A stretch of DNA of 64,000 nucleotides from an uncultured Bacilli bacterium (GTDB lineage: Bacteria > Bacillota_I > Bacilli_A > RF39 > UBA660). Of the stretch, positions 26,499 through 48,976 are shown piece after piece; the stretch's first letter is position 1, and the number at the start of each line of letters is the position of its first letter. Under the pieces are notes generated by a model, which was given only the letters and a program-made list of their open reading frames with translations, was not told the origin of the DNA and made no database searches. The stretch is from positions 78,366-142,365 of the forward strand of contig CAKOIM010000001.1 in assembly GCA_934086815.1 (NCBI GenBank), given 5' to 3'. A program made the translations under genes and the position numbers.

Positions 26499-26527
26499 TT
26501 GGCATTAAAATATTTTTGTGATATAAT
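26499..26527 (+). promoter_or_regulatory. Candidate promoter of the SipW/TasA-like locus
   Basis: TTGGCA (26499-26504), 17-nt spacer, TATAAT (26522-26527) with upstream TG (extended -10). Confidence 0.55.
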
Positions 26528-26552
26528 CTGATTATGGTAAAGGAAGGTACTT

Positions 26553-27092
26553 ATGAAAAGAATAATTATTGTTATTTTGACAACATTATATATAATTATT
26601 TCAATAGTTGTTACAACTTTATTACTTCATTACAATGATTATAACGTTACTGTTATTAATAATAATAGTTTAATAAGTTTAAAAAAAGATTATGATGAAT
26701 TAAAAAAAGGTTCTTTAGTTATTGTTGCAAATAAGGAAGTTAAAGTTGGAGATAAGATTTTTTATTATGAAGCTAATAATAATAATATTGGTATAAGTCT
26801 TAAGTCTGTTAAAAAAATTGATGAAATTAATGCAAATGAATATATGTACACACTAGATAATGATAAAGTAATTACTAGGGACTTTATTATAGGTGCCTTA
26901 AATGATGCTAAAGTTTATCCATTTATTGGGAGTGTTTTACTTTTACTCGAATCTAAATGGGGTTTTTTAAGTATCATTATTTTACCAGTAGCTGTTTGTT
27001 TTATTTTAGAAATTTATACACTAATTAAGGAATTTAAACCTAAGAAAAAAAGAAAAATGGGATGTAAAAATGAAAATAGTAAAAATAAATAA
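26553..27092 (+). CDS. SipW-like membrane protein, catalytically degenerate (pseudo-signal-peptidase), paralog of 44275-44808
   Basis: Has SipW topology (N- and C-terminal TM helices). The SGSMEP box is replaced by NNSLISL and the THR(V/I) His box is absent. Clearly alignable with 44275-44808. Confidence 0.55.
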   Translation: MKRIIIVILTTLYIIISIVVTTLLLHYNDYNVTVINNNSLISLKKDYDELKKGSLVIVANKEVKVGDKIFYYEANNNNIGISLKSVKKIDEINANEYMYTLDNDKVITRDFIIGALNDAKVYPFIGSVLLLLESKWGFLSIIILPVAVCFILEIYTLIKEFKPKKKRKMGCKNENSKNK

Positions 27093-27996
27093 ACAAAAAG
27101 CTTTACTGCTGTTATTAGTTTTTGTTTCTATACTATCTTGGGGTTCTTTAATTAAGACTTATGGAAGATACATTTATAATGAACTTAGAGATTATTATTT
27201 TGCAAGTCATAGTTTTTATTTTAATAGTGATAAATTAGATGTTGGTTTTAATAATGAAGAATTAGATAATTACTCAGGTGTTGATCCATATACAATAACT
27301 ATTAATATGAACAGCTATAAAAATAACTTTGTTGCTAGTAGTTCCGATATTGATTACAATATAACTTATAAATGTTCAAATAATGCTACATGTGAAGTTT
27401 CTAAAAGTTCTGGTATTATTTATGCGGCAAGTCATACGGATTCATTTTATGTTACGATTACACCAAAAGAAAATTTAAGCGATGGTGATAAAATTTGGGT
27501 TGAAGTAGAAGCTACATCTATTAGTCCTTACAAAAAAACTTTAAAGGGTAAATTCACTTTAAAGGTAGGTAAGATGGGTCTTGCTTATGAAATAAATGAT
27601 GTTAAGAATAGGGCATATTTTGATGTGCATTTTACTAATACATATGACTTTTATACGGTTAATGAAGCATTTGCTAATCATAATGTGGGTGATAGAATAG
27701 ATATAGAGACGTTTTTAAGTTTAAGTGACATAGATAAAGAAAAATGTTCTTCTGCTGTAATTGAAATTAAGTTTGATCCAAGAGTAGCTGTTTTAGATAT
27801 GACTAATGATGCTTATATCAATAACATTAGTAAAACTACTAGAATTATAAATAATTATGAATATATAGATGGTTTTATATTTAAAGTAGAAGCATTATCT
27901 AGTAAAAGTGTTAGGTTTTATAAAAGTAATGTTAGTAATGATTATACTTATCCATTTAACAATAATAATTCGATAGTAGATGTAATCTATCATTAA
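27070..27996 (+). CDS. Exported protein with SipW-cognate-like N-terminus (308 aa)
   Basis: Signal-anchor LLLLLVFVSILSWGSLIKTYGRYIYNE follows the T-[YF]-[AG]-x-[YF] pattern seen in TasA-type substrates. S/T/N-rich, beta-rich composition. Confidence 0.55.
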   Translation: MKIVKINKQKALLLLLVFVSILSWGSLIKTYGRYIYNELRDYYFASHSFYFNSDKLDVGFNNEELDNYSGVDPYTITINMNSYKNNFVASSSDIDYNITYKCSNNATCEVSKSSGIIYAASHTDSFYVTITPKENLSDGDKIWVEVEATSISPYKKTLKGKFTLKVGKMGLAYEINDVKNRAYFDVHFTNTYDFYTVNEAFANHNVGDRIDIETFLSLSDIDKEKCSSAVIEIKFDPRVAVLDMTNDAYINNISKTTRIINNYEYIDGFIFKVEALSSKSVRFYKSNVSNDYTYPFNNNNSIVDVIYH

Positions 27997-28006
27997 GGAG
28001 GTAACA

Positions 28007-31565: not shown

Positions 31566-32141
31566 ATGAAAAATAAAAATATAGTAAAAATAATATTAGG
31601 GATAATAAAAAGTATTGCAACATTTTTTATTGTATGTGTTTTTAGTATAATATTTTTACAAAGAGTTAGTAATAATTCAATTAATTTAGCTGGTTTTAGT
31701 ATTTATACTGTTGTAACTGAAAGTATGTATCCTAAATATAAAGTTTATGATATGATTTTAGTAAAAAGTGTTGATACTAAAAGTATAAATGTTCATGATG
31801 ATGTTGTATATAAAGGAGAAAAGTCTGATTTTCAAGGTAAAATAGTTACACATAGAGTGGAAAAAATTGATAATAATAATGGTGTTTTAACCTTTACTAC
31901 GAAGGGGATTAATAATGATATTGAAGACCCTTTAGTAAATGAAAATCAAATTATGGGAAAAGTTGTTCATAAGCTTGTATTATTAAGTTTAATTAGTAAA
32001 GTTATAAATAATACATATGGATTTTATTTTTTAATATTTGTACCTTTAGTAATTGTAGTATTTTTAGAAGTTATGGAAACAATTGAAGAAAAAAAGAAAT
32101 TAAAAAAGGTTTTAGAAAATGAAAAAGAAGAAGGAGAATAA
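31566..32141 (+). CDS. sipW: SipW-type (archaeal/ER-type) signal peptidase I, catalytic residues present
   Basis: VVTESMYPKYKVYDMILVK (Ser box), IVTHRVEKI (His box), TKGINNDIED, and both N- and C-terminal TM helices as in B. subtilis SipW. Confidence 0.75.
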   Translation: MKNKNIVKIILGIIKSIATFFIVCVFSIIFLQRVSNNSINLAGFSIYTVVTESMYPKYKVYDMILVKSVDTKSINVHDDVVYKGEKSDFQGKIVTHRVEKIDNNNGVLTFTTKGINNDIEDPLVNENQIMGKVVHKLVLLSLISKVINNTYGFYFLIFVPLVIVVFLEVMETIEEKKKLKKVLENEKEEGE

Positions 32142-32742
32142 CTTATTAATATTTATTAAAATAATAAGAAAAAGAGTTAAGCTTAGTACTTTAATAATGC
32201 TTATCATTACATTTTCTTCTTCTACTTTTGCATGGTTTATATATGCTACTAAAGTTGATAGTGGTATAACTGCTCACGTTAAAGCTTGGAATGTCTTATT
32301 TGAAGTAGGCGAAGATGAAATTGTTGAAAATATGCATTTTGATGTTTCTGATATTTATCCCGGTATGATGACTTATACTGATAATGTATCTGTTAAAAAT
32401 AAAGGTGAAACTAAAGCAGAATTATCTTATGAAATAGTTTCTTATACTATTTTTGGAGTTAAGTACGAAGTAGGGAATAACGGAGTTTTATCTAGTGAAG
32501 ATTTAAAACAAAGTTTGTTAAATGACTACCCATTTAAAACAGCTATTTCTCTATCTAATAATATTATTAGTCCAAATTCAAGTGAATCATTTTCTTTAGT
32601 TGTATCGTGGGCTTATGAATCTGGGGATGATGATAAAGATACTTTATGGGGAATAAAAGCTTATGATTTTCATGAGCTTTACCCTGATTTACCAAGTATT
32701 TCTATAGAATTAAAAGTTACTGCGACTCAAAAAAATAACTAA
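32119..32742 (+). CDS. TasA/camelysin-like exported protein
   Basis: SipW-cognate-like N-terminus FSSSTFAWFIYAT. DIYPGMMTYTDNVSVKNKGETKAELSYEI resembles the TasA LKPGD...F.F.N.GSL block. Confidence 0.65.
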   Translation: MKKKKENNLLIFIKIIRKRVKLSTLIMLIITFSSSTFAWFIYATKVDSGITAHVKAWNVLFEVGEDEIVENMHFDVSDIYPGMMTYTDNVSVKNKGETKAELSYEIVSYTIFGVKYEVGNNGVLSSEDLKQSLLNDYPFKTAISLSNNIISPNSSESFSLVVSWAYESGDDDKDTLWGIKAYDFHELYPDLPSISIELKVTATQKNN

Positions 32743-32764
32743 AAAAATGCCAAAAGGCATTTTT
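32743..32764. terminator. Bidirectional terminator between convergent TasA-like genes
   Basis: AAAAATGCC-aaaa-GGCATTTTT. Confidence 0.7.
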
Positions 32765-32766
32765 AA

Positions 32767-33354
32767 TTAATTTGGTATTTGTATAAATTGAATATTTAAC
32801 TTTAATTTAGCTTGTTCATTGCTAAAGGAAGCATTTGTGTCTTCTTCGTTTGTCATTTTACTATTATTTGAATCATCCCATTTTACATAAAGACGAATAT
32901 TCGTTAAATTAATGTTATCTTTTTTATAAATGTTATCAGTAATATTTTCGCCATTGTTAATTGCAATGTTTTCACTACCATTAACTGAGTAACTCGTTAC
33001 AATTAAATCAGAAACTGAACTAGTTGCATCTACATTTGGTGTTATAGTATATGAAAATGATACATCAACTTGCGAAGAATCAATAATTAAATCAATGTAA
33101 CCCTCACTTGTCGGAGCAATTACTCCGGCTTTTATATGTTCTGTTCCAAGAAAAGTGGGAGTAAGTAAAGCACTTGTGCTTGAGTTGTTTCTTACATCTT
33201 GATTATTTACTAATATATGCCATCTAGCAACAGAAATATTGGTTTTCCCATCTAAATTAGTATTGTACTTTGCATAAGTTTCATTAATTGTAGAAAAACA
33301 AAAAAACAAAGATATAATTGCTATTAACAAGGTCATTTTTCGAACTATATTCAT
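32767..33354 (-). CDS. TasA/camelysin-like exported protein (inverted orientation), paralog of 44805-45392
   Basis: Signal peptide plus INETYAKYNTNL. ARWHILVNN...GVIAPTSEGYIDLIID..VDVSFSYTI aligns with AKFNLLVNN...GKIAPGVSGYFELVLD..SDVSIYYEV. Confidence 0.65.
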   Translation of the reverse strand: MNIVRKMTLLIAIISLFFCFSTINETYAKYNTNLDGKTNISVARWHILVNNQDVRNNSSTSALLTPTFLGTEHIKAGVIAPTSEGYIDLIIDSSQVDVSFSYTITPNVDATSSVSDLIVTSYSVNGSENIAINNGENITDNIYKKDNINLTNIRLYVKWDDSNNSKMTNEEDTNASFSNEQAKLKLNIQFIQIPN

Positions 33355-33476: not shown

Positions 33477-34178
33477 ATGGCTAGGGAAGTAATTGTAACA
33501 GCAGATGCAATCAAAAGAAGAAAAAAAATGTTTTTGAAAACGAAAATTATAATTGGTTTATTACTAATTATATTTTTACTTATATTTGCAATTTTAGGAA
33601 TAGTTTTTAATGTAAATAAGTTTACAATTACTTTATCTGATAAACTACAAAATGAAAAAGGTATAATATTATATTCTGATATAAATAATAAAAGTCATCA
33701 AAGAAAATTATTTGCAAATGCACTTAATGATATGGATAACATTACATATGATTGGATTCCTAAAAATGTTCATACTTCATCTACCGGAGGAAGCCACAAT
33801 GGTGATAATTACATTGCTTATACTTTTTATGTTGAAAATGAAGGAGAATCTAGTGTTAATTATTGGTATTCTATAATTATTGATGATGTTATAAAAAGAG
33901 TTGATGAGGCTGTTCGGGTAATTGTATTTTTAAACGATGAAGAAAAAGTATATGCAAAAATTAATAAAGATACAGCTAAGGCTGAAAAAGATACGGAAGC
34001 CTTTTATAAAGATGATGTCGTAGTTTTAAAATCTCGAAATGATTTTAAAGTCGGAGATATTGATAAATTTACCATTGTTATTTATCTTGAGGGAGAAGAT
34101 CCGGATTGTTTAAATGATATAATTGGTGGCGAAATAAAAATGCACATGGAGATAAGAGAGGAGCATTTAAATGAATAA
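33477..34178 (+). CDS. Signal-anchored protein sharing the C-terminal LEG[EQ]DxDC motif
   Basis: K-rich N-terminus and TM helix IIIGLLLIIFLLIFAILGIVF. C-terminus FTIVIYLEGEDPDCLNDIIGGEI is related to the C-termini of 34171-35160 and 46536-47594. Confidence 0.6.
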   Translation: MAREVIVTADAIKRRKKMFLKTKIIIGLLLIIFLLIFAILGIVFNVNKFTITLSDKLQNEKGIILYSDINNKSHQRKLFANALNDMDNITYDWIPKNVHTSSTGGSHNGDNYIAYTFYVENEGESSVNYWYSIIIDDVIKRVDEAVRVIVFLNDEEKVYAKINKDTAKAEKDTEAFYKDDVVVLKSRNDFKVGDIDKFTIVIYLEGEDPDCLNDIIGGEIKMHMEIREEHLNE

Positions 34179-35160
34179 AAAACATAAAAAACAACAAAAA
34201 GAATTGAAAAAAATATCTTTGTTATTACTTATTTTATTTACGGGTGTCTTTTTAGCTAGTTCAACTTATGCTTGGTTTACTGTAAATCGAATTGCATATG
34301 TTGATTCTCTTCAAGTTCGCGTTGAAGCAGAAGGGGGAATGGAAATTTCTAGTGATGCCAAAACTTTTAAATCATATATAACAAGTGAAGATTTAATCGA
34401 AGCTGCAAATACTTATAAATCTAGTATAAATCAACTCCCCTTAAAATTAGAACCGGTTTCTACGGCCGGAGGGCTTGAAAATGGTAAATTAATGTTGTAT
34501 TATGGTAGTGTTACAAATAATATTAAGGGTGATTACGTATTAAATGCAACTCGTGAAATTGAAAAACGTAATAATAATGATGGAATGTTCATAGCTTTTG
34601 ATATTTTCTTAAAAAGTAACAGAGATACTAAATTATATTTAACACCAGAATCTGGGGCTAGATATATTGGCGATAAAATACCGGGGATACAAAACGCAAC
34701 GAGAATTGCCTTTATAGTTTTAGGAAATACGGTATCTAATGCAAGTCCTGAATTTATTCAAAATTTAAATAATGCAACACCAAATGATGTATATATATGG
34801 GAACCTAATTATGATGTTCATAATGATTATGGTATTAAACATGCCCAAGACGTGTATGGAATTACCGTTGGTAAAGAAAATAATCAACCAGTTTTATATG
34901 ATGGAATTTCTGGTGAACTAAAAAACATTTTTGTTGATAAAGCAAATCAAGCTTACTATCCAAATTATTTTAAAAGAGTTAATGTTAATTATTTAACACC
35001 TGCTAATTTCATTAATAATAAAGAAATATTTTCTATTAATAGTGGTATTACCAAAATAAGAATATATGCTTGGCTTGAAGGACAAGATGTTGATTGCGAA
35101 AATAATTCTGCGGTTGGCAATCTAGATTTTAAATTTCAATTTAGTGTAAATCCATCATAA
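34171..35160 (+). CDS. Exported TasA-signal-type protein (329 aa), paralog of 46536-47594
   Basis: LASSTYAWFTVNR, NATRIAFIVLGN, IWEPNYDVH and IRIYAWLEGQDVDCENN are all shared with the 352-aa paralog. Confidence 0.65.
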   Translation: MNKKHKKQQKELKKISLLLLILFTGVFLASSTYAWFTVNRIAYVDSLQVRVEAEGGMEISSDAKTFKSYITSEDLIEAANTYKSSINQLPLKLEPVSTAGGLENGKLMLYYGSVTNNIKGDYVLNATREIEKRNNNDGMFIAFDIFLKSNRDTKLYLTPESGARYIGDKIPGIQNATRIAFIVLGNTVSNASPEFIQNLNNATPNDVYIWEPNYDVHNDYGIKHAQDVYGITVGKENNQPVLYDGISGELKNIFVDKANQAYYPNYFKRVNVNYLTPANFINNKEIFSINSGITKIRIYAWLEGQDVDCENNSAVGNLDFKFQFSVNPS

Positions 35161-38100: not shown

Positions 38101-41100
38101 ATGTATTCGGAGCTAATGATGCATCTGGTATGCCAAGTAAGTCGGTAAAAGTTATTGTAAATAATGGTAAAATCGAAAATGTATATGGGGGAGGAAATAA
38201 AACAAGTCTTACTACTAGTGATGTCTCTATAAATGGTGGTAATATTAAAAATATATATGGAGGTTCAAATATAATTGGTGATGTTACAACATCTAATATT
38301 TCTGTTAATGGTGGTGATCTTACTAATGTATATGGTGGTAATAATATAGGTGGAAAGACTGCTACTAGTAATGTTACCTTAAATAATGGAACAATTTCAA
38401 ATGCCTATGGCGGAGGGAATTTAGCACCTACTACTAATACTTTTATAACTGTAACAAGTAATGCGGTTGTAACAAATGTTTATGGTGGTGGTGAAAGTGC
38501 TGATGTAAGTGATGAAACTCACGTATCTTTATTAAATGGATATGTAACAAACGCCTATGGAGGTTCAAATATTACTGGCTCTGTTTTAAAATCTTCTATC
38601 GTTGCTACTGGGGGAAAAACTTCATATATATATGGAGGTAATAATGCCGGAGGAAGTACCATATCGACAAACGTTTTAATTAATGGAATAAATGTAAAAG
38701 AAGTATATGGTGGAGGTAATCAAGCTAATTCAACAACTAGTAATGTTACTGTTAAAAATGCATCTAAAGCAATAGATTATTGTTTTGGTGGAGGAAGAGA
38801 AGCCAATGTGGATACAACTAACATTTTAGTAAGTGGTGGAAGTATTAAAGAGGTATACGGTGGTTCAAATAAATCTGGTACTGTAATAAATTCAAATGTA
38901 AATATAGCATCAGCTTTAGAAGATTCTCCAGAGGTTTTAGCAAATGTAACTTATACTTTAGAAAATGTTACTTGGCAAAGTGATGAGTATGAAACATTAG
39001 CTAAAATTAAAGTTGAGTTAGTTAATAATACGAGTGATGAAATTACCCAATATAATGGTTCACTATACATTCCCGATTCTAAGTTGTTTACGAATTATTC
39101 ACAAACGGCAATTACTTTAGAAGACTATACATATTCATTTAATGAAAATAATACTTATTATGGAACAAATCCTATTCCTGCCAATTCATCTATTTCTTTT
39201 GAAATTGAAGTTTTATCTTCATCGTCTATTAATGATTTTGGCTTAACTCATAAGTTCGAAGGTCGAAGTGGAACAAATACATATATAGATAAAACTGGTG
39301 AAAAAATAATGTATGTTTATGGTGGTAATAATGTAGGTGGAAAGACTATAAATTCCAATGTATTAGTAAATGATGGGAATATAACCAATGTATATGGTGG
39401 AGGAAATGAAGCTATAACTGATAATCCAAAAGTAAAAATAATTGGTGGAAATATTTCTAAGAATATATATGGCGGAGGAAACCAAGCGATTGTAAGCAAT
39501 GATACAAATGTGTCTGTAACTGGTGGTGTGATAGGTGGCTCTGTTTATGGTGGAGGTAATGGTCAGACTGCAGTAGTTACTAAAAATACATTAGTAAATA
39601 TCTCTGATAAAGCAAACATTACAAAACATGTATTTGGCGGAGGAAATGCCGCAGCAACTGGATTAAGTCAAAATGATAATTCAAAATCTATAGTTAATAT
39701 TGCTGGTGGAATTATTAAAGGCTCTGTATATGGAGGGGCTAATACATCTGTTGTTTATGGTGAAACTTTTGTAAATATTGGTGAAAATGTTATAAGTGAT
39801 AAAACATTAAAAAAATCAGATATTGATATATCTGGTACAATCTTTGGTGGTGGAGAAGCAAATGAATCTGGTAGTGAAATATACGATTATTCATTTATAA
39901 GTGTTACTGGTGGAATTAACATAAAAATAGATGGCAAAGGTTATGATAATTTTGCCATGCATGGTTCAATATTTGGCTCTGGTAATGCATCAAGTACTAG
40001 AGGATATAGTTATATAAATATTGATAATTATGGTACGTTTGATAAATATCAAAAAAATATTTCTATTCAAAGAGCAGATACGGTTTCAATTAGTAATAGT
40101 GCTATTGAACTTTATGGTGCCACGGATAGAACAAATGAATATTCAGATGTTTTATTTTCCATAAGTCGTGTTAAAACTTTAAAACTTAAAAATAATTCAA
40201 CATTATTTTTACAAACAGGTTCAAATTTACTTGAAAACTTTAATAGTTTAGTTGATATTAATGGAGAAGAAGTATTAGCTAGTGTCGATATAAGTGATGA
40301 TGGTACAGTAAATAAAAATGTTAATAATAGATTATATATGCTCGAAGGAAAGAATTTAAATATAGCTACTAATGAGCAAGTAACTCAATATGGTAAAGTA
40401 TCTGGGATGACATTTTTCGGTATGTATAAATTAGATCATAGTAAAAATGCTATTACGGCTTTATATAATCCCAAATATGATCAAGGAAGTACTGTTTTAA
40501 ATAATGATGCTTATGCATTTATGAGTGGTTCTTATGTACTTGGACTTCATCAAAAAAATCATGATATAAAAGTTAATGGTTTTTATTCTAATTATTTAAC
40601 TGAAGATAATTCAAATAATATAAGTGTTCAATATATAAAGCCAATACCAGAAGATTCTAACTATTATATGTGGGTTATTGGAGAACAAGTAGCATCATAT
40701 GAAATAACTTTAACTGCATCAAAGTATTTAACCCTTGGTACTGTTGAACTTCCTCTTAGAAATAACTATAATGCCAATAGTACATTTTCTATAGTAGGTT
40801 TTAATTATGATAGCCTAGATTCTTCCGTATCTTTTATCGATGAAGCTGATGTTCCAAGAGTTGCTAGCAATCCTGAAGATGCAGATAAAGTAATGGGACT
40901 AGGTGTTAAAAATGGGTCAGGTTTTATTACTAAAGGATCATTATCTTTCCTAACGGGAACAAATGATAATTTAAAAGGTACTAAAGATTTTGAAAGAGAA
41001 AACACAACAAGTGTACCAAGTTTAGTATTCTATTTATATCATTCAAAGAATTTACAAACATCTGGAAATATGGGTTCTGTAATTGTATCAATGTTAGTTA

Positions 41101-42593
41101 CAACAAAAATAGATGATTTAAATAGTGAAGTTGAAAGAGTAAATGTTATAATCAATTTAAATAGAGCTTTATATAACACTAACGAATATGAAGCCACAAT
41201 TGCTCCTTCAAAACATTATGAAATGTTTGCAACAAGTGATGTTCGTATTACTAATAAAGGATCATTTTCAACTTATTATTCATTATATATGCCAAGTGAT
41301 GTTACTCCATATAAAGATGGATATCATCGTAGTTTAGTTTCTACATATCTTTTCCCTGAAGGTACAAAAATTACTATGATTGACTTAGTTACTAAAACTG
41401 TTCCTGAATATTACTATTATGTTGTTACTAGTGATGATGTAGTAAATGGTGAAGAAGAATATCAAAGGTATAAAGAAGTCTCGTACGATTTTTCTAAATT
41501 TATTAAAATGGGTAGTACTAGCCTAGATAATTTATATAGTGATGAAAGAAGTAATAATATATATTATAATGATGTAGAAAAGTATACTCACGAAGAATTT
41601 ATTTTTATAGTTGATTTTAGTGGAACTCAAATAAATGATAATCAAACTAATAAAAGTTTATTAATTGAACTTAGAAATAAAGATAATAGAACAGTTACAT
41701 CTGTTCTTGGTGCTAGTCAATCGTCAATGTTTTATGATGTGTATTCTGATGTATCTGCAAAAATAGAACTTGATGCTACTTTAAATAATACAGATATTTA
41801 TCCAGGGAACCAAACATCTTTAAATATTATTACTAATTTTGTAAAGCCAATATTTAATAATGTCGAAGTTAATGATACAACATTTGATGATCAAAAGCTT
41901 GGTATAAAACTTACAATATTTGATGCTAATAATAATGTTGTTTCCGGAGCATCATTACTTGGTTTATCATTTGAATTAAATGGTAAAACTTATTATCCTA
42001 GAATTGATGGAACTACACGTATAAACATAGCATCTAGTATCGCTAATGTATCTAGTAATATTAAAATTAATACTCCGGAATCTTTTGCCCCAGGTTCGTA
42101 TAGATTAGTAATAGAATCCTTTGGTTCTCCGGATGGAATTTATTATGGCCTACATTCTTCCGCAGAAACAGAACTTAATTTTAAAGTTTTAAACAATAGC
42201 TATGGTTTAACTATTGATATAAGGGATGAAATGTTGGTTATTGATAAAAATACTGGTTTTAATTTATTAGGTAATAATAGTTTTGTTTACATGTTGAAAC
42301 ATTCATCAGTTTTAGAAAATCCAAGTATCAGAGTTAGTTTATATCGAAGAAATTATGATACACCATATTCGTTAAACTATGATATAGTGGACATAAAAGA
42401 TTTTTTCAATTATAATTATACTGATACCAATATAGATAAAGAATATATTTTATTGGATAAAGCATTAAGTGAAAATAATATATTTATGTCTATTAAAGAT
42501 AATTTAAAATCTGGTACATATCGCTTAACTTTTACAATATATGATAATAATGAGTATATAGGCAATATTTATAAGTATTTACTTATTAAGTAA
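35175..42593 (+). CDS. Giant (~2,472 aa) signal-anchored beta-helix-repeat surface protein (adhesin-like)
   Basis: N-terminal TM (LHLVLISICIVYLCFNIFTFFFTFG). Dozens of ~19-23-aa repeats x[VI]YGG[GS]N...N[VI] lie at nt ~37100-38900 and ~39310-40000, split by a non-repeat insert. No LPxTG at the C-terminus. Start placed at ATG 35175 behind AAGGAG (35163-35168); the track start 35160 is also possible. Confidence 0.8.
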   Translation: MKVKIFQNKNIKLHLVLISICIVYLCFNIFTFFFTFGEDITRISSNTISSGRSGVTDNVVTVDNEESDYYYYMGQNYTDSDGTMPTKTNKNIYNDSNLIKAKITYLSDDINSNFKGYVSNTELQDTYVYYNVYPIKDGYVTIELIDNPFVNRPNDKGFNGWTTNYQGAKIVYDDTYYTRYVKVPVYTDVTEIDITLHASWLDANVENITNSWSNINKFDSKVMKKVSATYTEVVYGDFNMVGYYKPVKIQNWGSCRGYYNQNGRYQNGWCTCRNYDGCTYYDYIENENYQEGEVYYKLVNNNMTLVDPSTLNRPIISSEEKVNSNINSDANMAAYYKKVTISRYASIEGLYNENGVLQTGTCNSSSGCVLYELIQYYDNQGNENKYQEANEYYYLPTRDTNIAVLKNSISSRWSSVNKPFTVTSLHNGVDYRTNATWSLRTGAWSGISVQAYNDLTIENVKINYGSSLTNSKSDTPGDSDSIGSFYGNWHNVKLGRGIVQNGSSASFDSILGGSNSTTGSRINETKYKFIVESGFYNSISLTNGGINQNSSSYIKAKGVYGNDYDKVLKNNDNFVVSYAASGSWGGVYYTIDPVDIGFDLTVKSGTYGKNKYDAYAGIYIGGRGWGTHYTSRRVKYEGGYTYNLIGGPITGSNRSNYNDSYMYITGGEIDMVIGGAGQTATYGNRIIQMTGGMINYSIFGGSNGYESGNGDGTVNGGSYIYVGGKSIVGKSEYVNNKQELYGATAGNVFGIGNGNSSYDTIGSSDSSVIVINDEAQINNDVYGGGNFSSVGVSSTKSSTTTDIEVLGGTIYGSLYGGGNKNGSGSSNKNATITINMYAGDIYGGLYGGANKKGTIYGTSNINVYGGTIHTSIYGGGLGGYLDSSSPGTYVGKDVNIVVGSDDFDTIPVINSIYGGSSFGSVNGTSSNVTGTNYNTKVTINKGKINNVFGGGEGSDTYTPNVYGNTLVTINNGEITNVFGANDASGMPSKSVKVIVNNGKIENVYGGGNKTSLTTSDVSINGGNIKNIYGGSNIIGDVTTSNISVNGGDLTNVYGGNNIGGKTATSNVTLNNGTISNAYGGGNLAPTTNTFITVTSNAVVTNVYGGGESADVSDETHVSLLNGYVTNAYGGSNITGSVLKSSIVATGGKTSYIYGGNNAGGSTISTNVLINGINVKEVYGGGNQANSTTSNVTVKNASKAIDYCFGGGREANVDTTNILVSGGSIKEVYGGSNKSGTVINSNVNIASALEDSPEVLANVTYTLENVTWQSDEYETLAKIKVELVNNTSDEITQYNGSLYIPDSKLFTNYSQTAITLEDYTYSFNENNTYYGTNPIPANSSISFEIEVLSSSSINDFGLTHKFEGRSGTNTYIDKTGEKIMYVYGGNNVGGKTINSNVLVNDGNITNVYGGGNEAITDNPKVKIIGGNISKNIYGGGNQAIVSNDTNVSVTGGVIGGSVYGGGNGQTAVVTKNTLVNISDKANITKHVFGGGNAAATGLSQNDNSKSIVNIAGGIIKGSVYGGANTSVVYGETFVNIGENVISDKTLKKSDIDISGTIFGGGEANESGSEIYDYSFISVTGGINIKIDGKGYDNFAMHGSIFGSGNASSTRGYSYINIDNYGTFDKYQKNISIQRADTVSISNSAIELYGATDRTNEYSDVLFSISRVKTLKLKNNSTLFLQTGSNLLENFNSLVDINGEEVLASVDISDDGTVNKNVNNRLYMLEGKNLNIATNEQVTQYGKVSGMTFFGMYKLDHSKNAITALYNPKYDQGSTVLNNDAYAFMSGSYVLGLHQKNHDIKVNGFYSNYLTEDNSNNISVQYIKPIPEDSNYYMWVIGEQVASYEITLTASKYLTLGTVELPLRNNYNANSTFSIVGFNYDSLDSSVSFIDEADVPRVASNPEDADKVMGLGVKNGSGFITKGSLSFLTGTNDNLKGTKDFERENTTSVPSLVFYLYHSKNLQTSGNMGSVIVSMLVTTKIDDLNSEVERVNVIINLNRALYNTNEYEATIAPSKHYEMFATSDVRITNKGSFSTYYSLYMPSDVTPYKDGYHRSLVSTYLFPEGTKITMIDLVTKTVPEYYYYVVTSDDVVNGEEEYQRYKEVSYDFSKFIKMGSTSLDNLYSDERSNNIYYNDVEKYTHEEFIFIVDFSGTQINDNQTNKSLLIELRNKDNRTVTSVLGASQSSMFYDVYSDVSAKIELDATLNNTDIYPGNQTSLNIITNFVKPIFNNVEVNDTTFDDQKLGIKLTIFDANNNVVSGASLLGLSFELNGKTYYPRIDGTTRINIASSIANVSSNIKINTPESFAPGSYRLVIESFGSPDGIYYGLHSSAETELNFKVLNNSYGLTIDIRDEMLVIDKNTGFNLLGNNSFVYMLKHSSVLENPSIRVSLYRRNYDTPYSLNYDIVDIKDFFNYNYTDTNIDKEYILLDKALSENNIFMSIKDNLKSGTYRLTFTIYDNNEYIGNIYKYLLIK

Positions 42594-42737: not shown

Positions 42738-44226
42738 TGAATTAAATCAAAATATTGATAATATTAAAGAAGTATTAGATACATTACCTAAAAATAACAA
42801 AAAAAATATAAAAGCTTATAAAGATGAAGCATTAAACATTTATAATGATTTTAAAAATAAGCGTAGTATATTAGAAAAAGAATTAGAAAAAAGAAAGATA
42901 AAAATTAGTGATTTAAGCGTAAATGAAAATATTGAAAAGGAAAGAAAAGAATTAAAATTTTTGGAAGATAATTTATATTTATTTACTGATACTAATACAT
43001 CGTATGAAAAATCTAACTTAGATATAAATATATATAATGTAAGTAAGTATTATAAATATAGCTTAGACAAAGTAAATGATGATATATTACAAATAATTAA
43101 AACATTTACTAGTTTAGGTATTAATTTAACTGATAAAGATTTTTATTACAGTAAATATTTAAAGAAATACTTAGATGCATTATTAAATGGTCGTAATGTT
43201 AAAGATACATTTGAAAATATTTATTGGAAGTGTAGTGATATATTAACACATGCGGAATTAAACTTTAAATCATTATATTTAAAAAATAAGAATACATTTG
43301 ATAAGTATTATGCATTAAAAAAGAATAATTTATTAAAAAATACTTCAAGTAAAGAGATAATTGAAAATTATAAAATGCTATATAAACAATTAGATAATGA
43401 TATATTTAAAGATAAAGCTACTATATATAACTTGTTTAAAGATAGAGTGTTAAATATAAATGATTTTAAAGGAGATTTAATAAAGAAAAGTTATCAAAAT
43501 ATATTTAATAAAGATTATAATAATATAGATATAGATGATGTAATTAAATATTATTATGCTTTAAAAGAATATATGGATTATTTAAATATAATGTATATTA
43601 TAGATGATGCTAAGAAGTTATTAGAGTCTAAAAATAATTATAAGAGTAATTGTAAAAGCATACTTAGAGATATTAAGCGTAATGAATATAAGTTAGTAAA
43701 AATAAATAAGATTATAAATAAAATAGATAATAAAAGTAAAGATAGTGGTAAATATATTATTATGCAAAATACAATTATTAATAAATTAAAAGAGTTATAT
43801 GATAATTTATTTGATAATGATTTGCTTGATAGATTATATAAAGTTATTAATAGTGACACTACATATGATGAAGTAATAGAAATATATTATAATAATTATT
43901 TATACTTAACAAAATTAATTAAATCATTAAATGATGAAGTAACATTAGAGGAATTAACAAATAATATAGATATTGTTAAAAATATATATTTCAGTCCATA
44001 TAAGACATTTTTAAAATCATCTTTATTAGGTGAAGACAAAGATATTAAATTAGTTTTTAGTGATTGTTATAGTTTAGTAAGTTATAATATTAATGTTGAT
44101 TTATTAGATAATTACGATGAAATTAATGATTTAAGAAATAATATTTATAAGATAATTATTTATTATTATATTAATGCATTAGGTATCAATATTGAAGATA
44201 TAGAATTTTTTAGTATTGTGGATTGA
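42730..44226 (+). CDS. Hypothetical K/N/I/Y-rich, largely helical cytoplasmic protein (498 aa)
   Basis: GAGGGAG RBS. No TM segment and no recognisable catalytic motif. Confidence 0.5.
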   Translation: MIDELNQNIDNIKEVLDTLPKNNKKNIKAYKDEALNIYNDFKNKRSILEKELEKRKIKISDLSVNENIEKERKELKFLEDNLYLFTDTNTSYEKSNLDINIYNVSKYYKYSLDKVNDDILQIIKTFTSLGINLTDKDFYYSKYLKKYLDALLNGRNVKDTFENIYWKCSDILTHAELNFKSLYLKNKNTFDKYYALKKNNLLKNTSSKEIIENYKMLYKQLDNDIFKDKATIYNLFKDRVLNINDFKGDLIKKSYQNIFNKDYNNIDIDDVIKYYYALKEYMDYLNIMYIIDDAKKLLESKNNYKSNCKSILRDIKRNEYKLVKINKIINKIDNKSKDSGKYIIMQNTIINKLKELYDNLFDNDLLDRLYKVINSDTTYDEVIEIYYNNYLYLTKLIKSLNDEVTLEELTNNIDIVKNIYFSPYKTFLKSSLLGEDKDIKLVFSDCYSLVSYNINVDLLDNYDEINDLRNNIYKIIIYYYINALGINIEDIEFFSIVD

Positions 44227-44274
44227 AAATACTTGATAATGTGTGTTATAATTTAGGCAAGGTGGTAGTAGAAA

Positions 44275-44808
44275 ATGAAAATAGTTAAAACAATATTTAG
44301 CATACTTATTATTCCCTATGTAATTATTGCAATATTTACAACTGCATGTTTAATGAATTATAATAAGTATGGTATAACAGAGTTTGGAAATAAATCCTTG
44401 ATTATAGTAGAAGATAATAGTTTAGAGCCAACATTTAAAAAAGGAAACTTATTAGTTGTTAAAAGAAATGAAAATTTAGAAAGTGTTAAACCTGGAGATT
44501 CAATATTCTTTTATAATAACTATAATAATGAAGTTAGTGTTAGTTTGAGTAATGTATTAAAAAGAACTAAAGTAAATGATAAAGAGTACACATATACTAT
44601 AGATGGAAATTATGATGTATCTAGTGAATATTATATTGGTAGTGTAAATGATACTAGTATATATTCGTTTTGGGGAACACTTTTAGGTGTATTTACTTCA
44701 AGAATTGGTTATTTATTAATATTTGTATTACCAATTTTATGTTTCTTCTTATATGAAATTTATGCTGTTATTAGAGAAGTAAAAGAATATAAGGAAGAAA
44801 AACAATGA
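44275..44808 (+). CDS. SipW-like membrane protein, degenerate (Ser box partly kept, His box lost)
   Basis: IVEDNSLEPTFKKGNLLVVK compares with SipW SGSMEP.FK.G.L.LVK. No THR(V/I) motif. N- and C-terminal TM helices. Paralog of 26553-27092. Confidence 0.55.
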   Translation: MKIVKTIFSILIIPYVIIAIFTTACLMNYNKYGITEFGNKSLIIVEDNSLEPTFKKGNLLVVKRNENLESVKPGDSIFFYNNYNNEVSVSLSNVLKRTKVNDKEYTYTIDGNYDVSSEYYIGSVNDTSIYSFWGTLLGVFTSRIGYLLIFVLPILCFFLYEIYAVIREVKEYKEEKQ

Positions 44809-45392
44809 AAAGAGGATTCATCGTTATAGGGTGTTTACTCTTTTTGCTTATATTGGGATTTAATATAACTTATGGTTTGTTTGAAAGTAAGAAAGATTTT
44901 AATTCAATTATGAATGTAGCAAAATTTAATTTATTGGTAAATAATAGTAATATAGTTGATACTAAAAGTTTTAATATAAATAATATAACTGTAATTGATA
45001 ACGAAAATGTTTTAAACGGTAAGATAGCCCCAGGTGTAAGTGGATATTTTGAGTTAGTATTAGATCCTAAGGGGAGTGATGTTTCCATATATTATGAAGT
45101 GTCGCTTGATTTAGAAAATATATTAAATAAGGGCATTGTACTAGAAAAAGTTGTTAGTGATAATAATAATTTAATTAGAGTTGATAAATATAGTTACGCC
45201 GGAGTTTTTACATTAGATGAAATAAAAAATAATGTAACAAAGAGTATAAAATTATATTTTTCGTGGGTAAATAATGACGAAACATTAGATGATATTAAAT
45301 ATGCGGATGGGTTAAAATGCGATATTAAAGCAAATGTTAAAGCTAGTCAATATTTTGGCGAAGATATACCTGTTTATAGTGAGGAAATATGA
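44805..45392 (+). CDS. TasA/camelysin-like exported protein
   Basis: Signal peptide plus NITYGLFESKK, and GKIAPGVSGYFELVLDPKGSDVSIYYEVSL. Paralog of 32767-33354. Confidence 0.65.
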   Translation: MKRGFIVIGCLLFLLILGFNITYGLFESKKDFNSIMNVAKFNLLVNNSNIVDTKSFNINNITVIDNENVLNGKIAPGVSGYFELVLDPKGSDVSIYYEVSLDLENILNKGIVLEKVVSDNNNLIRVDKYSYAGVFTLDEIKNNVTKSIKLYFSWVNNDETLDDIKYADGLKCDIKANVKASQYFGEDIPVYSEEI

Positions 45393-45898
45393 AATATATA
45401 AAAAAAATAATGGATGGATTAATAGTAATTGCTCTAATTATTTTAATATTAATTATTTATGGTTACGTAGAAAAGTATGTATTTAAAAAAGAATATATAA
45501 ATTATTTTGGATATACAATATTTGAGGTTGCTAGTGGAAGTATGGCTCCGACTATTAATGTTGGGGATATAGTATTAGTTAAATTAACTAAAGATATTAA
45601 TCAAAATGATATTATAACTTATAAAGAAAATAACTATTTTATTACGCATAGAGTAATAAAAAAAGATAATGATAAAATTATTGCTAAAGGTGATTATAAT
45701 GATTCCGTTGATAAAGATGTTAATTTAAATGATGTTTTAGGTAAAGTTATAAAAATTATACCTGGGATAGGTATATGGAAGAAAGTATTTTTTAATACAA
45801 AAGTTATGATTTCTATAGTAAGTACGATTATTCTTTTTGCAATATATTTCTATTTACTAGAAAGGAAGAAAGAAGTTAATGAAGAAGTTAAGGATTAA
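45389..45898 (+). CDS. sipW: SipW-type signal peptidase I, canonical catalytic boxes
   Basis: VASGSMAPTINVGDIVLVK, FITHRVIKK and AKGDYNDSVD, with N- and C-terminal TM helices. Confidence 0.8.
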   Translation: MKYIKKIMDGLIVIALIILILIIYGYVEKYVFKKEYINYFGYTIFEVASGSMAPTINVGDIVLVKLTKDINQNDIITYKENNYFITHRVIKKDNDKIIAKGDYNDSVDKDVNLNDVLGKVIKIIPGIGIWKKVFFNTKVMISIVSTIILFAIYFYLLERKKEVNEEVKD

Positions 45899-46445
45899 TA
45901 AGAAATATACTTTTATTATAATTGGTATTATTCTAATATTTAGTTTAGGAATAAGTTATGTTACTTTTGCTAAATATCAAGTACATGCTGAAAGTGTTGC
46001 TCCGTTAGAATATGCTTTATATATATTAGATACTAAGCCTATAAGTGATACTATTAAATTGAGTGAAATTAAGCCAAATAATGATGAATATGTTTATGCA
46101 TTTAGTATTAGTAATTTTAAAGATAAAAAAAGACTAGAAACTAATTTAGAATATAGTTTAGTTATTAAAGCGACGACTAATTTACCTTTAGAATATAGAT
46201 TGGTTATTAATGATGATTACAAAAATAATTTTGGTAATGCTTTTTTAAAAGATGAAATAAAAGAAGATGGTGATGGGACTTATTTTAGGGTAATGACTGC
46301 GCCAGATAGTAATTTTTCATATAAAGAAGATGAAACTAATTATTATTATTTAATTGTTAAGTTTCCGCTTAATTATGCAGATAATAAATACCAAAATATT
46401 ACAGAGTTTATTAGTATAGAAATTAGTTCAAAACAAGTCATATAA
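45879..46445 (+). CDS. Small exported protein with SipW-cognate-like N-terminus (188 aa)
   Basis: FSLGISYVTFAKYQVHA, then beta-rich sequence (YVYAFSISNFKDKKRLETNLEYSLVIKA). Confidence 0.55.
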   Translation: MKKLRINKKYTFIIIGIILIFSLGISYVTFAKYQVHAESVAPLEYALYILDTKPISDTIKLSEIKPNNDEYVYAFSISNFKDKKRLETNLEYSLVIKATTNLPLEYRLVINDDYKNNFGNAFLKDEIKEDGDGTYFRVMTAPDSNFSYKEDETNYYYLIVKFPLNYADNKYQNITEFISIEISSKQVI

Positions 46446-46489: not shown

Positions 46490-46535
46490 AAATTCATATG
46501 ATAGAGAGAGTAATCTATAGTTAAGGAGTGAAGTC

Positions 46536-47594
46536 ATGGAAAATAAAATGGATGAAAATCTTGATGTATCAAAACAAAAAGATGAAAAGAAAAGGGGTAC
46601 GGTTTTAGTCTCTGATAGACAAAGAAAACATAAAAAAAGAATTGGGTTATTAATTTTATTATTACTATTTACTGGTGTTATGCTGGGTACATCAACTTAT
46701 GCATGGTTCACTGCTAATAAGACTGTTAATGTTAATAAGATTACAGTTAATGTTGCAGCTCAAAATGGTATTCAAATTTCAGTGGATGGAACTACATGGA
46801 AATCAATTATTCAAACTGATGATATAAAGGGCGCTATTGCTAAATATGCTGCAGCTAAAAATCAAGTTCCAGTTTCTATTGAACCTGTTTCTACAGTTGG
46901 GGAAATGGATGATGAAGGTTTGATGAAAATGTATTATGGTACTGTTGATACTAATGATGATGGTAATTATATTTTGACAGCTACTAAAAGTACGGAAACA
47001 AATGGTACTGATGGTAAGTTTATAGCATTTGATTTATTCTTTAAAGTTGATCAAAATACGGATACTTATTTAACTAGTACTTCTGGTGTTGCTGCAGAAG
47101 GAAATGATTCAGGTATTAAAAATGCTTCTAGAATGGCGTTTGCTGTTTTAGGTAATACAACTGCTGGGGATACATTAGAAAATATTCAAAAGCTAAATGC
47201 TGGAACAGCTACTCCAGTTAATATATGGGAACCAAATTATGATATACATAAAGCGGCTGCTGTTGGTCACGCTAGAGATACTTATGGTATCACTACTCAA
47301 GAAACTGGTGCTACGCAAATTGCTTATGATGGAATTAAAACTGACATAACTAAAGAAAATAATATTTTAGTTGGTAAAGCTAATAAAACTGATAATGCTA
47401 CATATTTTGGAGCTACTACTATGAAATATTCTACAAAGGCTGATTTTACTGATAAAGTTCCATTTTTAACTCTTCAATCTGGTATTACAAAGATGAGAAT
47501 TTATATGTGGATTGAAGGACAAGATGTTGATTGTGAAAATAATGCATCTGGTGGATCAATTGCTTATAATTTACAAATTACAACTGAAGCTTAA
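46536..47594 (+). CDS. Exported TasA-signal-type protein, candidate major structural subunit (352 aa)
   Basis: LGTSTYAWFTANK, NASRMAFAVLGN, IWEPNYDIH, MRIYMWIEGQDVDCENN. Has its own promoter and terminator. Codon choice (GCT/GGT/ACT/GTT-rich) looks like a highly expressed gene. Confidence 0.65.
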   Translation: MENKMDENLDVSKQKDEKKRGTVLVSDRQRKHKKRIGLLILLLLFTGVMLGTSTYAWFTANKTVNVNKITVNVAAQNGIQISVDGTTWKSIIQTDDIKGAIAKYAAAKNQVPVSIEPVSTVGEMDDEGLMKMYYGTVDTNDDGNYILTATKSTETNGTDGKFIAFDLFFKVDQNTDTYLTSTSGVAAEGNDSGIKNASRMAFAVLGNTTAGDTLENIQKLNAGTATPVNIWEPNYDIHKAAAVGHARDTYGITTQETGATQIAYDGIKTDITKENNILVGKANKTDNATYFGATTMKYSTKADFTDKVPFLTLQSGITKMRIYMWIEGQDVDCENNASGGSIAYNLQITTEA

Positions 47595-47608
47595 TTAGTT
47601 TATTAAAT

Positions 47609-47640
47609 AAAGGATTGTTGTCTATACAACAATCCTTTTA
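47609..47640 (+). terminator. Rho-independent terminator
   Basis: 12-bp stem AAAGGATTGTTG / CAACAATCCTTT with a 6-nt loop. Confidence 0.75.
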
Positions 47641-47764
47641 ATATGTTTGCAAAAGTTTTGAAAGTCATAATTTAATTATTTGCCTAAGCTTTTTCTAAAT
47701 AGCTTGTTTTTTTTGTTGGCATAATATATAATTAAGTAAAGATGGTAAAGGATGTGACGTTAAT

Positions 47765-48976
47765 TTGAGAATGCGTTTTAAATCATTATTATTTATTATA
47801 CTGTTTTTATTCATATTTACGGCATCAGTTGGAGTTGGATATCTTTTTTATCATGAAACACCGACAGATTCAGATATTGTTATAGATGGCGATATTACAA
47901 TTAATTATTTAAGTGGGAAAACATTCAAATTAAATGGTGATAATGAAATATCTTTTTCTGTTACAAATAATGATACTGAACAAAAATATTATTATATTCA
48001 GTTAACAGATGTATATGCTAAAGATGTTTCGTACGAATTAAAATCTTCGGATAACTTTGAAAAAAGTGATGCTTTAAAATCAGATATTATTTCTAATCAA
48101 ATATCAATTGAAGGAAATAAAACAATTAATTACACAATAAAATTTCAAGCAGAAGACAATAAAGAGTATTCTGGTACAATTAAAGTTGGTGTAAAAGTAA
48201 ATGAAAATAATACTTTTGCAGATGTAATACTTGCAAATAATAAAGTCGGAGATGTCACATTATCAAATATTGGGGATACTGCGACATTAGATGAAGGTTT
48301 ACAAAAAAAAGAAGATGATATTGGACCGGCTTATTATTTTCGTGGAGCTGTTTCTAATAATTTTGTTACATTTGCTAATTTTACATGGAAAATAGTTAAA
48401 ATTAATGGTGATGGTTCTGTAAAACTTGTTTTAGATGGAATACTTCCTGAAATTAGTAAATACTATGAAAATGATACAGAGTTTTTAAATACACCTATAT
48501 ATAAACAATTAGAGAGTTGGTATAATGGTTATTTAAGTAATTACAGTGATTATATAACTTATTATAAGTATTGTGACGATAAAGGATATGATAGTAATAA
48601 AACAACATTACTAGCTTATAATAGAATAATAACAAATAAAATTCCATCTTTTGTTTGTTTAGGAAATGCCCTTAATTCTAAAATAGGTTTATTGACAGCG
48701 GATGAAGTATCCCTAGCCGGAGGGAGTAATGTAGCAAATACAAGTTATTATTTATATAATGAAAATATTAAAACATCTTATTATACAATGACTGCATCAT
48801 CAATAAATGCTACATTTAATCCTTTTGTTGTAAATGCAGATGGAAGCTTAGTTAGTGATGTATCTGGTACTTTGCTTAGAGGTGTTAGACCAGTAATAAA
48901 TATTACTAAAAATGCTAAGGTAAGCGGTAGCGGAACTTACGATGATCCATACACGATAATAAGTAATAAAAATTAA
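47765..48976 (+). CDS. Signal-anchored surface protein, paralog of 13612-15159
   Basis: TM helix LLFIILFLFIFTASVGVGYLF. An N-terminal beta-rich domain, then YYFRGAVSNNFVTFANFTWKIVKINGDGSVKLVL and GVRPVINITK (DUF6273-like from memory). Start could be TTG 47765 or ATG 47771. Confidence 0.6.
   Translation: MRMRFKSLLFIILFLFIFTASVGVGYLFYHETPTDSDIVIDGDITINYLSGKTFKLNGDNEISFSVTNNDTEQKYYYIQLTDVYAKDVSYELKSSDNFEKSDALKSDIISNQISIEGNKTINYTIKFQAEDNKEYSGTIKVGVKVNENNTFADVILANNKVGDVTLSNIGDTATLDEGLQKKEDDIGPAYYFRGAVSNNFVTFANFTWKIVKINGDGSVKLVLDGILPEISKYYENDTEFLNTPIYKQLESWYNGYLSNYSDYITYYKYCDDKGYDSNKTTLLAYNRIITNKIPSFVCLGNALNSKIGLLTADEVSLAGGSNVANTSYYLYNENIKTSYYTMTASSINATFNPFVVNADGSLVSDVSGTLLRGVRPVINITKNAKVSGSGTYDDPYTIISNKN

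Follow-up and report, generated by a model that had tools for sequence, protein, structure and literature searches.

We analysed 64,000 nucleotides of contig CAKOIM010000001.1 (GenBank assembly GCA_934086815.1, positions 78,366 to 142,365, forward strand) from an uncultured Bacilli bacterium of the RF39/UBA660 lineage; this whole stretch is called the window, and all coordinates refer to it. We found the window carries a chromosomal array of 17 genes (26499-47638, ~21 kb, nearly gap-free, 16 genes on the + strand) that encodes two catalytic SipW-type signal peptidases, two catalytically dead paralogs, a series of exported proteins, and an McrB-like GTPase with an McrC-like partner. Judged by its sequence, the array matches the CoCoPALM type of system, and we consider it fairly probable that it specifies a SipW-dependent, probably donor-strand, surface fibre/adhesin system that is driven or regulated by a repurposed McrBC module.

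The gene order is dS1-p308-p304-McrB-like-McrC-like-SipWa-p207-p195r(-)-p233-M329-GIANT-p498-dS2-p195-SipWb-p188-M352 (Table 1). All open reading frames (ORFs) named in a first-pass annotation, which was made from the letters of the sequence and had placed a candidate surface-fibre/adhesin system at 26499-48976, are present. Several of the genes are ancient duplicates of each other (dS1/dS2, SipWa/SipWb, M329/M352 and p195r/p195).

Gene order is conserved across uncultured Bacilli

Gene neighbourhoods were compared from two anchors, M352 and the NTPase (the McrB-like GTPase). M352 gave 362 matching stretches in species-representative genomes, of which the best 79 loci were compared, and the GTPase gave 447 metagenome relatives, of which 43 long loci were compared. 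We found the gene order is conserved in ~120 loci of uncultured gut and rumen Bacilli, and this recurrence shows that the co-location of the genes is not accidental. Hence, the array is one co-conserved unit, as the first-pass annotation had proposed, and the neighbourhood check was positive with both anchors (79 and 43 loci).

All 362 M352-anchored stretches come from uncultured Bacilli-like metagenome-assembled genomes (MAGs) or 'CAG' assemblies, and the relatives bear names such as Clostridium sp. CAG:609, Mycoplasma sp. CAG:877 and uncultured Bacilli, Tenericutes or Erysipelotrichaceae. The same species recurs in 85 data blocks. In most of the 79 loci, the first half of the recurrent order is GIANT-p498-dS-p195-SipWb-p188-M352-(dS)-p308-p304-NTPase, which is continued in the second half by DUF2357-SipWa-p207-p195r(-)-p233-M352/M329-GIANT; the window holds a rearranged version.

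The same neighbours were found in nearly all of the 43 long GTPase-anchored metagenome loci. The genes p304-McrB-McrC lie between p308 and SipWa in 27 genome loci and in ~40/43 long metagenome loci, and, apart from the most distant variants, almost every long locus has p308 upstream of p304 and the McrB-like gene. A DUF2357 gene lies directly downstream of the GTPase gene in every long locus, and all 43 long metagenome loci have one or more SipW-family genes flanking the GTPase. Elsewhere in the array, p498 is found in 45/79 loci, and p195r is inverted in nearly all loci and has the same orientation in three. One p195r homolog, in a MAG locus (L053, 342-929, + strand), has an in-frame TAA stop, and may be a pseudogene or an assembly error.

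The distant variant L152 (OBKS01000019.1, 6364-16077) has three M352-like genes with SYAWF signals, a p233-like gene and a small p207-like gene, and two catalytic SipWs flank its McrB/McrC pair. The absence of any pseudo-SipW from this variant suggests that the dead peptidases were added in a specific lineage.

Two catalytic SipW-type peptidases and two pseudo-peptidases

SipWa and SipWb, which are 35% identical, both exceed the curated cutoff (51.85 bits) of TIGR02228, the model for endoplasmic reticulum (ER)-type/SipW-like signal peptidase I. In 24 SipWa and 40 SipWb orthologs, the S-M, T-H-R and G-D-x-N boxes never vary, nor does the following Asp. Hence, the two SipW-type signal peptidases with intact Ser and His boxes that had been read from the sequence are borne out by both the model and the orthologs. 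On the Bacillus SipW equivalog NF046067, SipWa reaches 61.8 bits and SipWb 57.5 bits, far below the cutoff of 190; therefore, they are of the same type as Bacillus SipW and are not its orthologs.

The other two paralogs, dS1 and dS2 (38% identity), align to the SipW families with an hhalign probability of 96-98%. Across the families of dS1 (16 sequences) and dS2 (55 sequences), the Ser, His and Asp are gone, as is the entire GDxN box; the window copy of dS2 retains a Ser at the aligned position despite the family-wide loss. On TIGR02228, dS2 scores 37.3 bits, which is below the cutoff, and dS1 has no match, so neither is a member by this test. The dead paralogs are nonetheless conserved in >55 genomes despite the lost catalytic boxes. 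Because they are homologous to SipW, have lost the catalytic residues and have kept the terminal transmembrane helices, dS1 and dS2 are conserved pseudo-peptidases, and the earlier description of two degenerate SipW-like paralogs was correct.

A shared motif ends the signal segment of the exported proteins

Of the 47 window ORFs of at least 150 aa, eight carry T[YF][AG].[FY] in their first 75 residues. Seven of these eight ORFs are inside the cluster, each with the motif directly after a hydrophobic 15-mer, relative to 0.19 expected from composition (~40-fold enrichment). The first-pass annotation had counted at least eight proteins with T-[YF]-[AG]-x-[YF]; seven stand, all in the cluster, and the 'ITRAF' protein that completed its count lies outside the interval, at 13612-15159. 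The latter is an orphan 515-aa ORF (+ strand) ~11 kb upstream of the cluster, with an N-terminal hydrophobic segment ending LGITRAF and no Pfam match, and may encode a further SipW-type substrate.

In 5/6 families, the columns of the motif rank among the best conserved, whereas the 188-aa (p188) family conserves it only weakly. The forms conserved in orthologs from dozens of genomes are TSTYAWFTANKTV in M352, NTFAWF in p207 and TYGLFES in p195; ETYAKY is conserved in p195r orthologs and T.GRYIYN in 29 orthologs of p308, and the NTFAWFIYATKV motif is conserved in the p207 family.

On TIGR04088, the SipW-cognate signal model (cutoff 19 bits), M352 scores 23.8 bits, and 31/40 members of its family match at E<=0.01. 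M329 and the small p195 family (0/52) do not match this model and have a similar short motif only. Hence, the cognate-signal check is positive for the M352 family and negative for M329 and the small proteins. The mature N-terminus of TasA starts at A28 in PDB entry 8aur; therefore, SipW cleavage falls inside the equivalent motif, T-W-A/A-F (the slash marks the cut). Together, the peptidase type and the TIGR04088-type signal tie the system to SipW/TasA biology.

The exported proteins form new families

M352 and M329 are 45% identical over 325 aa. Public data hold 2,589 M352 homologs, with no Pfam domain among the 120 best-scoring listed, and the AlphaFold (AF2) model of M352 is beta-rich (pLDDT, the predicted local distance difference test score, 81). 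The mature N-terminus is highly conserved, alternates in polarity, and is low-confidence (residues 47-62) and unpacked in the monomer model. The JGI label 'ribosomally synthesized peptide with SipW-like signal peptide' was rejected as a function for folded proteins of 330-380 aa.

BLAST and hhalign agree that p233 shares with M329 and M352 only a C-terminal module of 35-38 aa. This acidic module, W-x-E-G-x-D-x-(D/E)-C-x-N, is encoded at 47484-47588 in M352, 34059-34163 in p233 and 35049-35150 in M329. Within the M352 family (M329 included), E327, Q329, D330, D332, C333 and E334 (M352 numbering) are invariant, with a single invariant Cys. The module could be a metal (Ca2+)-binding or a subunit-interface site. 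p233 has no T-Y-A-x-F motif, and neither p233 nor M329 has a match in Pfam, NCBIfam or PADLOC scans.

GIANT has 24 YGGxN repeats, mostly ~25 aa apart, at residues ~700-1570, and sequence and profile searches gave no Pfam or PDB match for it. Because a ribosome-binding site sits there, its start is likely at 35175, giving 2,472 aa. Most GIANT orthologs with a recovered N-terminus carry a hydrophobic h-region followed by T-[YF]-[GS]-[ED]-[FL].

The five smaller exported proteins (p308, p207, p195, p195r and p188) gave nothing in the Pfam, NCBIfam and PADLOC scans. Profile comparison with hhalign relates p195 to p195r (99.8%), p195r to p188 (95%) and p207 to the p195 family (92%). There are >2,000 p195 homologs in public data, with no Pfam domain among the 120 best-scoring listed. 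The AF2 model of p195 is all-beta (pLDDT 73.6), and among its weak Foldseek matches, Gram-positive shaft pilins predominate, with AbpA, CanA and TasA also present. The match to AbpA is weak (probability 0.98, template-modelling (TM) score 0.38/0.41, root-mean-square deviation 4.7 A over 129 columns), as are those to CanA (TM up to 0.46) and the TasA fibre 8aur (probability 0.66, TM 0.34).

An McrB-like GTPase and an McrC-like protein belong to the unit

Among PDB entries, the McrB-like protein matches best to E. coli McrB, in the AAA+ GTPase domain (E 4e-4), and it also matches the PADLOC defence-candidate model PDC-M26A (7.9e-37). Its Walker A (GISGTGKTS), Walker B (ILDEMN) and I-N-N-D-D-S-T motifs are invariant in 26 McrB-like orthologs. 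A search of 1.84 billion representatives gave relatives in 775 clusters at E<=1e-30, and most of those listed have 600-870 aa and match in the GTPase domain only. An alignment of those relatives, taken from the 150 best representative matches and no shorter than 400 aa, gave the signature N-x-D-[DE]-S-T, in which the third-position D is constant and the fourth position is D/E in all but one listed variant, in exact agreement with the account of Bell et al. (PMC11090510).

In the N-terminus, L96, L103, L110 and I117 are invariant at heptad spacing and follow the predicted transmembrane helix. This helix and the predicted leucine zipper stand in the place of a DNA-binding domain. Likeness to FtsL/FtsB is sub-threshold (TIGR02209 E 0.016; PF04999 E 0.019, found in 10/23 members).

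The McrC-like protein has the DUF2357 domain (PF09823, E 4.5e-11, 42.9 bits relative to a cutoff of 23.3). In its sequence there is no nuclease family match, no conserved D...ExK pattern and no other domain, and it has no PDB match. Thus, at the level of sequence, the pair has neither the McrB DNA-binding domain nor the McrC PD-(D/E)xK nuclease by which McrBC restriction is recognised. The NTPase seen in the first pass belongs to the unit, and what had been called an AAA+ NTPase cassette is more precisely an McrB-like GTPase with an McrC-like DUF2357 protein.

Two more cytoplasmic proteins accompany this pair. We found no match for p304 in Pfam, NCBIfam, PADLOC or PDB, and p498 has no Pfam, NCBIfam or PADLOC match, with designed helical bundles as its only PDB matches. 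Apart from such bundles, the PDB searches with M352, the p195 family, GIANT, the McrC-like protein, p304 and p498 yielded a single marginal hypothetical protein. Across genomes, the GTPase is the most conserved protein of the cluster (66-76% identity), relative to 50-60% for M352 and 20-40% for p195. This steep contrast fits a constrained motor with rapidly diversifying surface parts.

One explanation of this arrangement is an ordinary expanded tapA-sipW-tasA operon into which an unrelated McrBC restriction cassette was inserted by chance. McrBC cassettes are mobile and common, and SipW-related genes lie on both sides of this one. However, almost all loci that span this region have p304-McrB-McrC at the same place, between p308 and SipWa, and this synteny effectively refutes a chance insertion. 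The predicted membrane anchor and zipper of the GTPase, in lieu of a DNA-binding domain, the lack of a detected nuclease and the rank of the GTPase as the most conserved gene of the cluster also speak against it. Hence, we regard this explanation as highly improbable.

A model of a probable SipW-dependent surface fibre

From the gene content, catalytic residues, motif conservation, GTPase motifs and synteny observed here, we infer a scheme of cleavage and polymerisation with a role for each subunit and for the GTPase. Precursors of six families (329/352, 207, 195 twice, 188, 308 and 2,472 aa) would be exported via Sec and held in the membrane by the N-terminal hydrophobic segment ending T-[YF]-[AG]-x-[FY]. 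SipWa and SipWb would cleave the motif behind its A/G, in the way that TasA is cut by SipW at T-W-A/A-F. The cut would free the conserved, strand-prone N-terminus, and M329/M352 would then polymerise, probably by donor-strand complementation. The ~190-210-aa beta-sandwich proteins and p308 would be minor or adaptor subunits, and GIANT would be the adhesin. p233 would serve as the membrane anchor, given that its transmembrane segment is kept, that it has the C-terminal module of the major subunit and that its gene overlaps the M329 start. The dead SipW paralogs may bind the same motif without cutting and so act as non-catalytic substrate-binding partners. At the cytoplasmic face, the membrane-anchored GTPase, the McrC-like partner, p304 and p498 would energise or gate assembly.

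In a bolder version, which we put forward tentatively and think rather doubtful, a GTPase hexamer with the McrC-like partner would be a new membrane assembly motor, coupling GTP hydrolysis to the steps in which donor-strand subunits with previously unseen folds are extracted, cut by SipW and polymerised at the base (or retracted), with the dead SipWs as an usher-like platform. If this version is true, Gram-positive bacteria would have a third class of pilus, an NTP-driven one, next to sortase and type IV pili, and a restriction-enzyme motor would have been exapted for surface-organelle biogenesis.

Several results weigh against the fibre model. No exported protein matches PF12389 (TasA/camelysin, Peptidase_M73) at E<=10, and hhalign of seven family profiles against TasA gave a probability of <1% each (the TasA query sequence was checked against PDB entries 8aur and 5of1). 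Profile searches of the PDB with the M352 and p195 families gave nothing meaningful and no TasA, and the small proteins fail TIGR04088, with not one of the 52 p195-family members matching. Hence, a TasA-family expansion, as the first pass had read the array, is not demonstrable: membership of the exported proteins in the TasA family is not supported by their sequences. Foldseek of the M352 model against the PDB gave no credible neighbour (best E 0.048, TM ~0.1), and the p195 model has no match at E<=0.001 (all E>=0.004, TM<=0.46). The fold comparison with TasA and AbpA gave a weak beta-sandwich likeness for p195. To our knowledge, TasA, AbpA and CanA fibres self-assemble without an NTPase, and we know of no direct precedent for a GTPase in this role; hence, the GTPase step is the weakest part of the model. 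Also on this side, CoCoNuTs, which are relatives of the GTPase, are predicted defence systems (PMC11090510).

The lack of TasA homology and the unmatched M352 fold would suit a second explanation, a coat or adhesin set of monomeric surface proteins that form no polymer, in which the SipWs merely release their substrates and the GTPase has a part in quality control or regulation. The surface proteins evolve fast (25-55% identity), as expected of exposed antigens, and GIANT could be an adhesin on its own. However, the mature N-terminal segment of M352 is conserved yet unpacked, several paralogous small subunits are kept in a fixed order, as in pilus operons, uncleaved p233 has the C-terminal module of the major protein, and p195 is weakly like pilins and donor-strand fibre subunits. 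We therefore think that a monomeric coat is unlikely.

The kinship of the GTPase bears on a third explanation, in which the cluster serves conflict, defence or signalling: phage or nearby cells would be detected by the surface proteins, and the membrane-anchored McrBC-like module would relay the signal or carry out a response. The match to the PADLOC defence candidate and the place of the GTPase in the NxD clade together with CoCoNuTs agree with it. In contrast, neither the McrC-like protein nor its neighbours gave a detectable nuclease or other effector domain, the cluster lies among housekeeping genes (dnaK/dnaJ, mtaB, recD2 and mreC) and not in a variable island, and its order is kept across the lineage, unlike typical patchy defence islands. 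We consider such a function quite improbable.

If the cluster builds fibres, as we favour, SipW/TasA-type biology would extend to new subunit folds. The carriers are widespread uncultured gut bacteria of humans and animals, and the cluster is among their largest conserved gene sets without an assigned function.

Extent and surroundings of the cluster

The window has a G+C content of ~25%, and most cluster genes have ribosome-binding sites of the AGGAGG type. Both flanks are housekeeping genes: upstream are dnaE, polC and hrcA-grpE-dnaK-tldD/pmbA-dnaJ (dnaJ ends at 26410), and downstream are mtaB, recD2 and mreC. A promoter consensus scan found no more sites in the region than in shuffled sequence; since AT-rich DNA gives site counts equal to those of shuffled sequence, the scan is uninformative overall, and the two promoter-like sites in Table 1 are suggestive only.

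A gene for a 403-aa exported protein (47765-48976, + strand) lies directly 3' of the hairpin that follows M352, and it adjoins the cluster in 3/79 related loci. Since the hairpin precedes this gene and the gene is not co-conserved, we place the end of the system near 47638, with the 403-aa protein probably outside it. Hence, of the interval first proposed, the cluster is real and the tail gene is probably not part of it. A reading of the 403-aa protein as an endospore appendage was rejected, since its match to Enas, the only family match, has an E of 0.45 and the gene is not co-conserved.

Two further observations concern the upstream flank. A tldD/pmbA-type metallopeptidase pair (22662-25290, + strand) is found between dnaK and dnaJ in the row of heat-shock genes, and an AAA_14/DUF4143 ATPase gene (12003-13301, + strand) lies between polC and the gene of the orphan 515-aa exported protein, with no evident link to the cluster.

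Table 1. Genes and sequence signals of the cluster, in window coordinates.
Feature	Description	Coordinates	Strand	Remarks
Promoter-like site	TTGGCA-17-TATAAT, TG-extended, 11/12 consensus	26499..26527	+	After dnaJ terminator (26418-26433), before dS1; suggestive only
dS1	Catalytically dead SipW-like pseudo-peptidase, 179 aa	26553..27092	+	N- and C-terminal transmembrane helices
p308	Exported, 308 aa	27070..27996	+	Signal ending KTYGRY; new family
p304	Cytoplasmic, 304 aa	28007..28921	+	Directly upstream of McrB-like gene in most loci; no transmembrane segment
McrB-like	NxD-clade GTPase, 506 aa	28921..30441	+	N-terminal transmembrane helix 56-74 and leucine zipper (predicted)
McrC-like	DUF2357 N-terminal domain, 366 aa	30452..31552	+	
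SipWa	Catalytic ER-type (SipW-like) signal peptidase I, 191 aa	31566..32141	+	TIGR02228 71.7 bits
p207	Small exported	32119..32742	+	Signal ending STFAWF
Terminator	Bidirectional hairpin	32743..32764	.	Between convergent p207 and p195r
p195r	Small exported, p195 paralog	32767..33354	-	Signal ending ETYAKY
p233	Candidate membrane anchor, 233 aa	33477..34178	+	Apparently uncleaved signal anchor (transmembrane 24-42); overlaps M329 start
M329	Exported, 329 aa, M352 paralog	34171..35160	+	Signal ending STYAWF
GIANT	Exported repeat protein, 2,472 aa; candidate adhesin	35175..42593	+	
p498	Cytoplasmic, helix-rich, 498 aa	42730..44226	+	Downstream of GIANT in most loci; no transmembrane segment
Promoter-like site	TTGAAA-18-TATAAT, TG-extended	44223..44252	+	Upstream of dS2; suggestive only
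dS2	Second pseudo-peptidase, 177 aa	44275..44808	+	Two terminal transmembrane helices
p195	Small exported beta-sandwich protein (predicted)	44805..45392	+	Signal ending ITYGLF
SipWb	Catalytic SipW-like signal peptidase I, 169 aa	45389..45898	+	TIGR02228 72.7 bits; Pfam S24/S26 matches
p188	Small exported	45879..46445	+	Signal ending VTFAKY
M352	Exported, 352 aa; candidate major fibre subunit	46536..47594	+	Signal ending STYAWF; strong ribosome-binding site
Hairpin	13-bp stem directly after M352	47609..47638	+	Likely end of system

Comparison with known systems

The cluster resembles the B. subtilis tapA-sipW-tasA operon (PMC9674648, PMC10151520) in that a dedicated ER-type SipW is encoded among its substrates and minor and major subunits are co-encoded. 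The signals are also alike, T-W-A/A-F in TasA and T-x-A/x-F in the cluster, of the TIGR04088 type on M352. In comparison, the B. subtilis operon has 3 genes and the cluster 17, including two peptidases with intact catalytic residues, two dead ones and a GTPase module, and the cluster substrates have no PF12389 match and no significant match to the TasA fold.

The sipW-bsaA-bsaB-bsaC operon of C. perfringens is likewise a SipW operon in a Firmicute, in which several TasA-like paralogs form membrane-anchored polymers (PMC7395162; PMC11580942). For their efficient secretion, BsaA/BsaC depend on type IV pilus genes (PMC7395162; PMC11580942), which gives a partial precedent for the involvement of an NTPase. 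However, the type IV pilus machine of C. perfringens is encoded elsewhere, whereas the NTPase of the cluster is McrB-like and encoded within it, and the C. perfringens subunits are recognisable, isopeptide-locked TasA relatives, whereas those of the cluster are new families.

Archaeal AbpA of bundling pili (7UEG) and CanA of cannulae (7UII, 9H8B) are among the few fibre subunits that resemble the p195 model, with all E >0.03, TM <0.5 and no sequence similarity. The archaeal donor-strand fibres rely on the general signal peptidase and do without an NTPase, whereas the cluster has dedicated SipWs and a GTPase.

With E. coli McrBC, the cluster shares the AAA+ GTPase core (Walker A/B and the asparagine signature) and a partner with the McrC N-terminal domain. 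E. coli McrBC has a DNA-binding N-domain and an NxxD signature; in contrast, the cluster pair has the predicted transmembrane helix and zipper, an NxD signature and no detected nuclease, and its neighbours are genes for secreted proteins.

The closest counterpart is CoCoPALM, which Bell et al. (eLife 2024, PMC11090510) named in one paragraph, deferring it to a forthcoming paper. There, the NxD variant defines a clade of GTPases that includes CoCoNuTs, and CoCoPALM is a 'large clade' within it, with McrB fused to an FtsB-like domain, McrC, and 'pilus assembly factors' of the signal-peptidase family (PMC11090510). A full-text literature search found no later use of the name and no follow-up work, and the text of the supplementary files of Bell et al. 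holds no CoCoPALM details. We found the NxD signature, an adjacent gene for a DUF2357 McrC homolog and linkage to signal-peptidase-family genes (four in the window) in common with CoCoPALM; as for the FtsB-like fusion, the cluster GTPase has the predicted transmembrane helix and zipper, with sub-threshold FtsL/FtsB homology. Hence, the architecture is not without precedent, and the first-pass statement that it corresponds to no known operon is outdated.

The published text has no component list, whereas pairs of catalytic and dead SipWs, six families with cognate signals, the transmembrane-anchored p233, the 2,472-aa repeat protein, p304 and p498 are documented here. Because the CoCoPALM class is otherwise undescribed, this component inventory and the model are new detail. 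CoCoPALM seems to be a case of a restriction-type GTPase taken into service at the cell envelope, and if the cluster is fibre-building, the inventory would be the first concrete component list, with a testable model, for this class.

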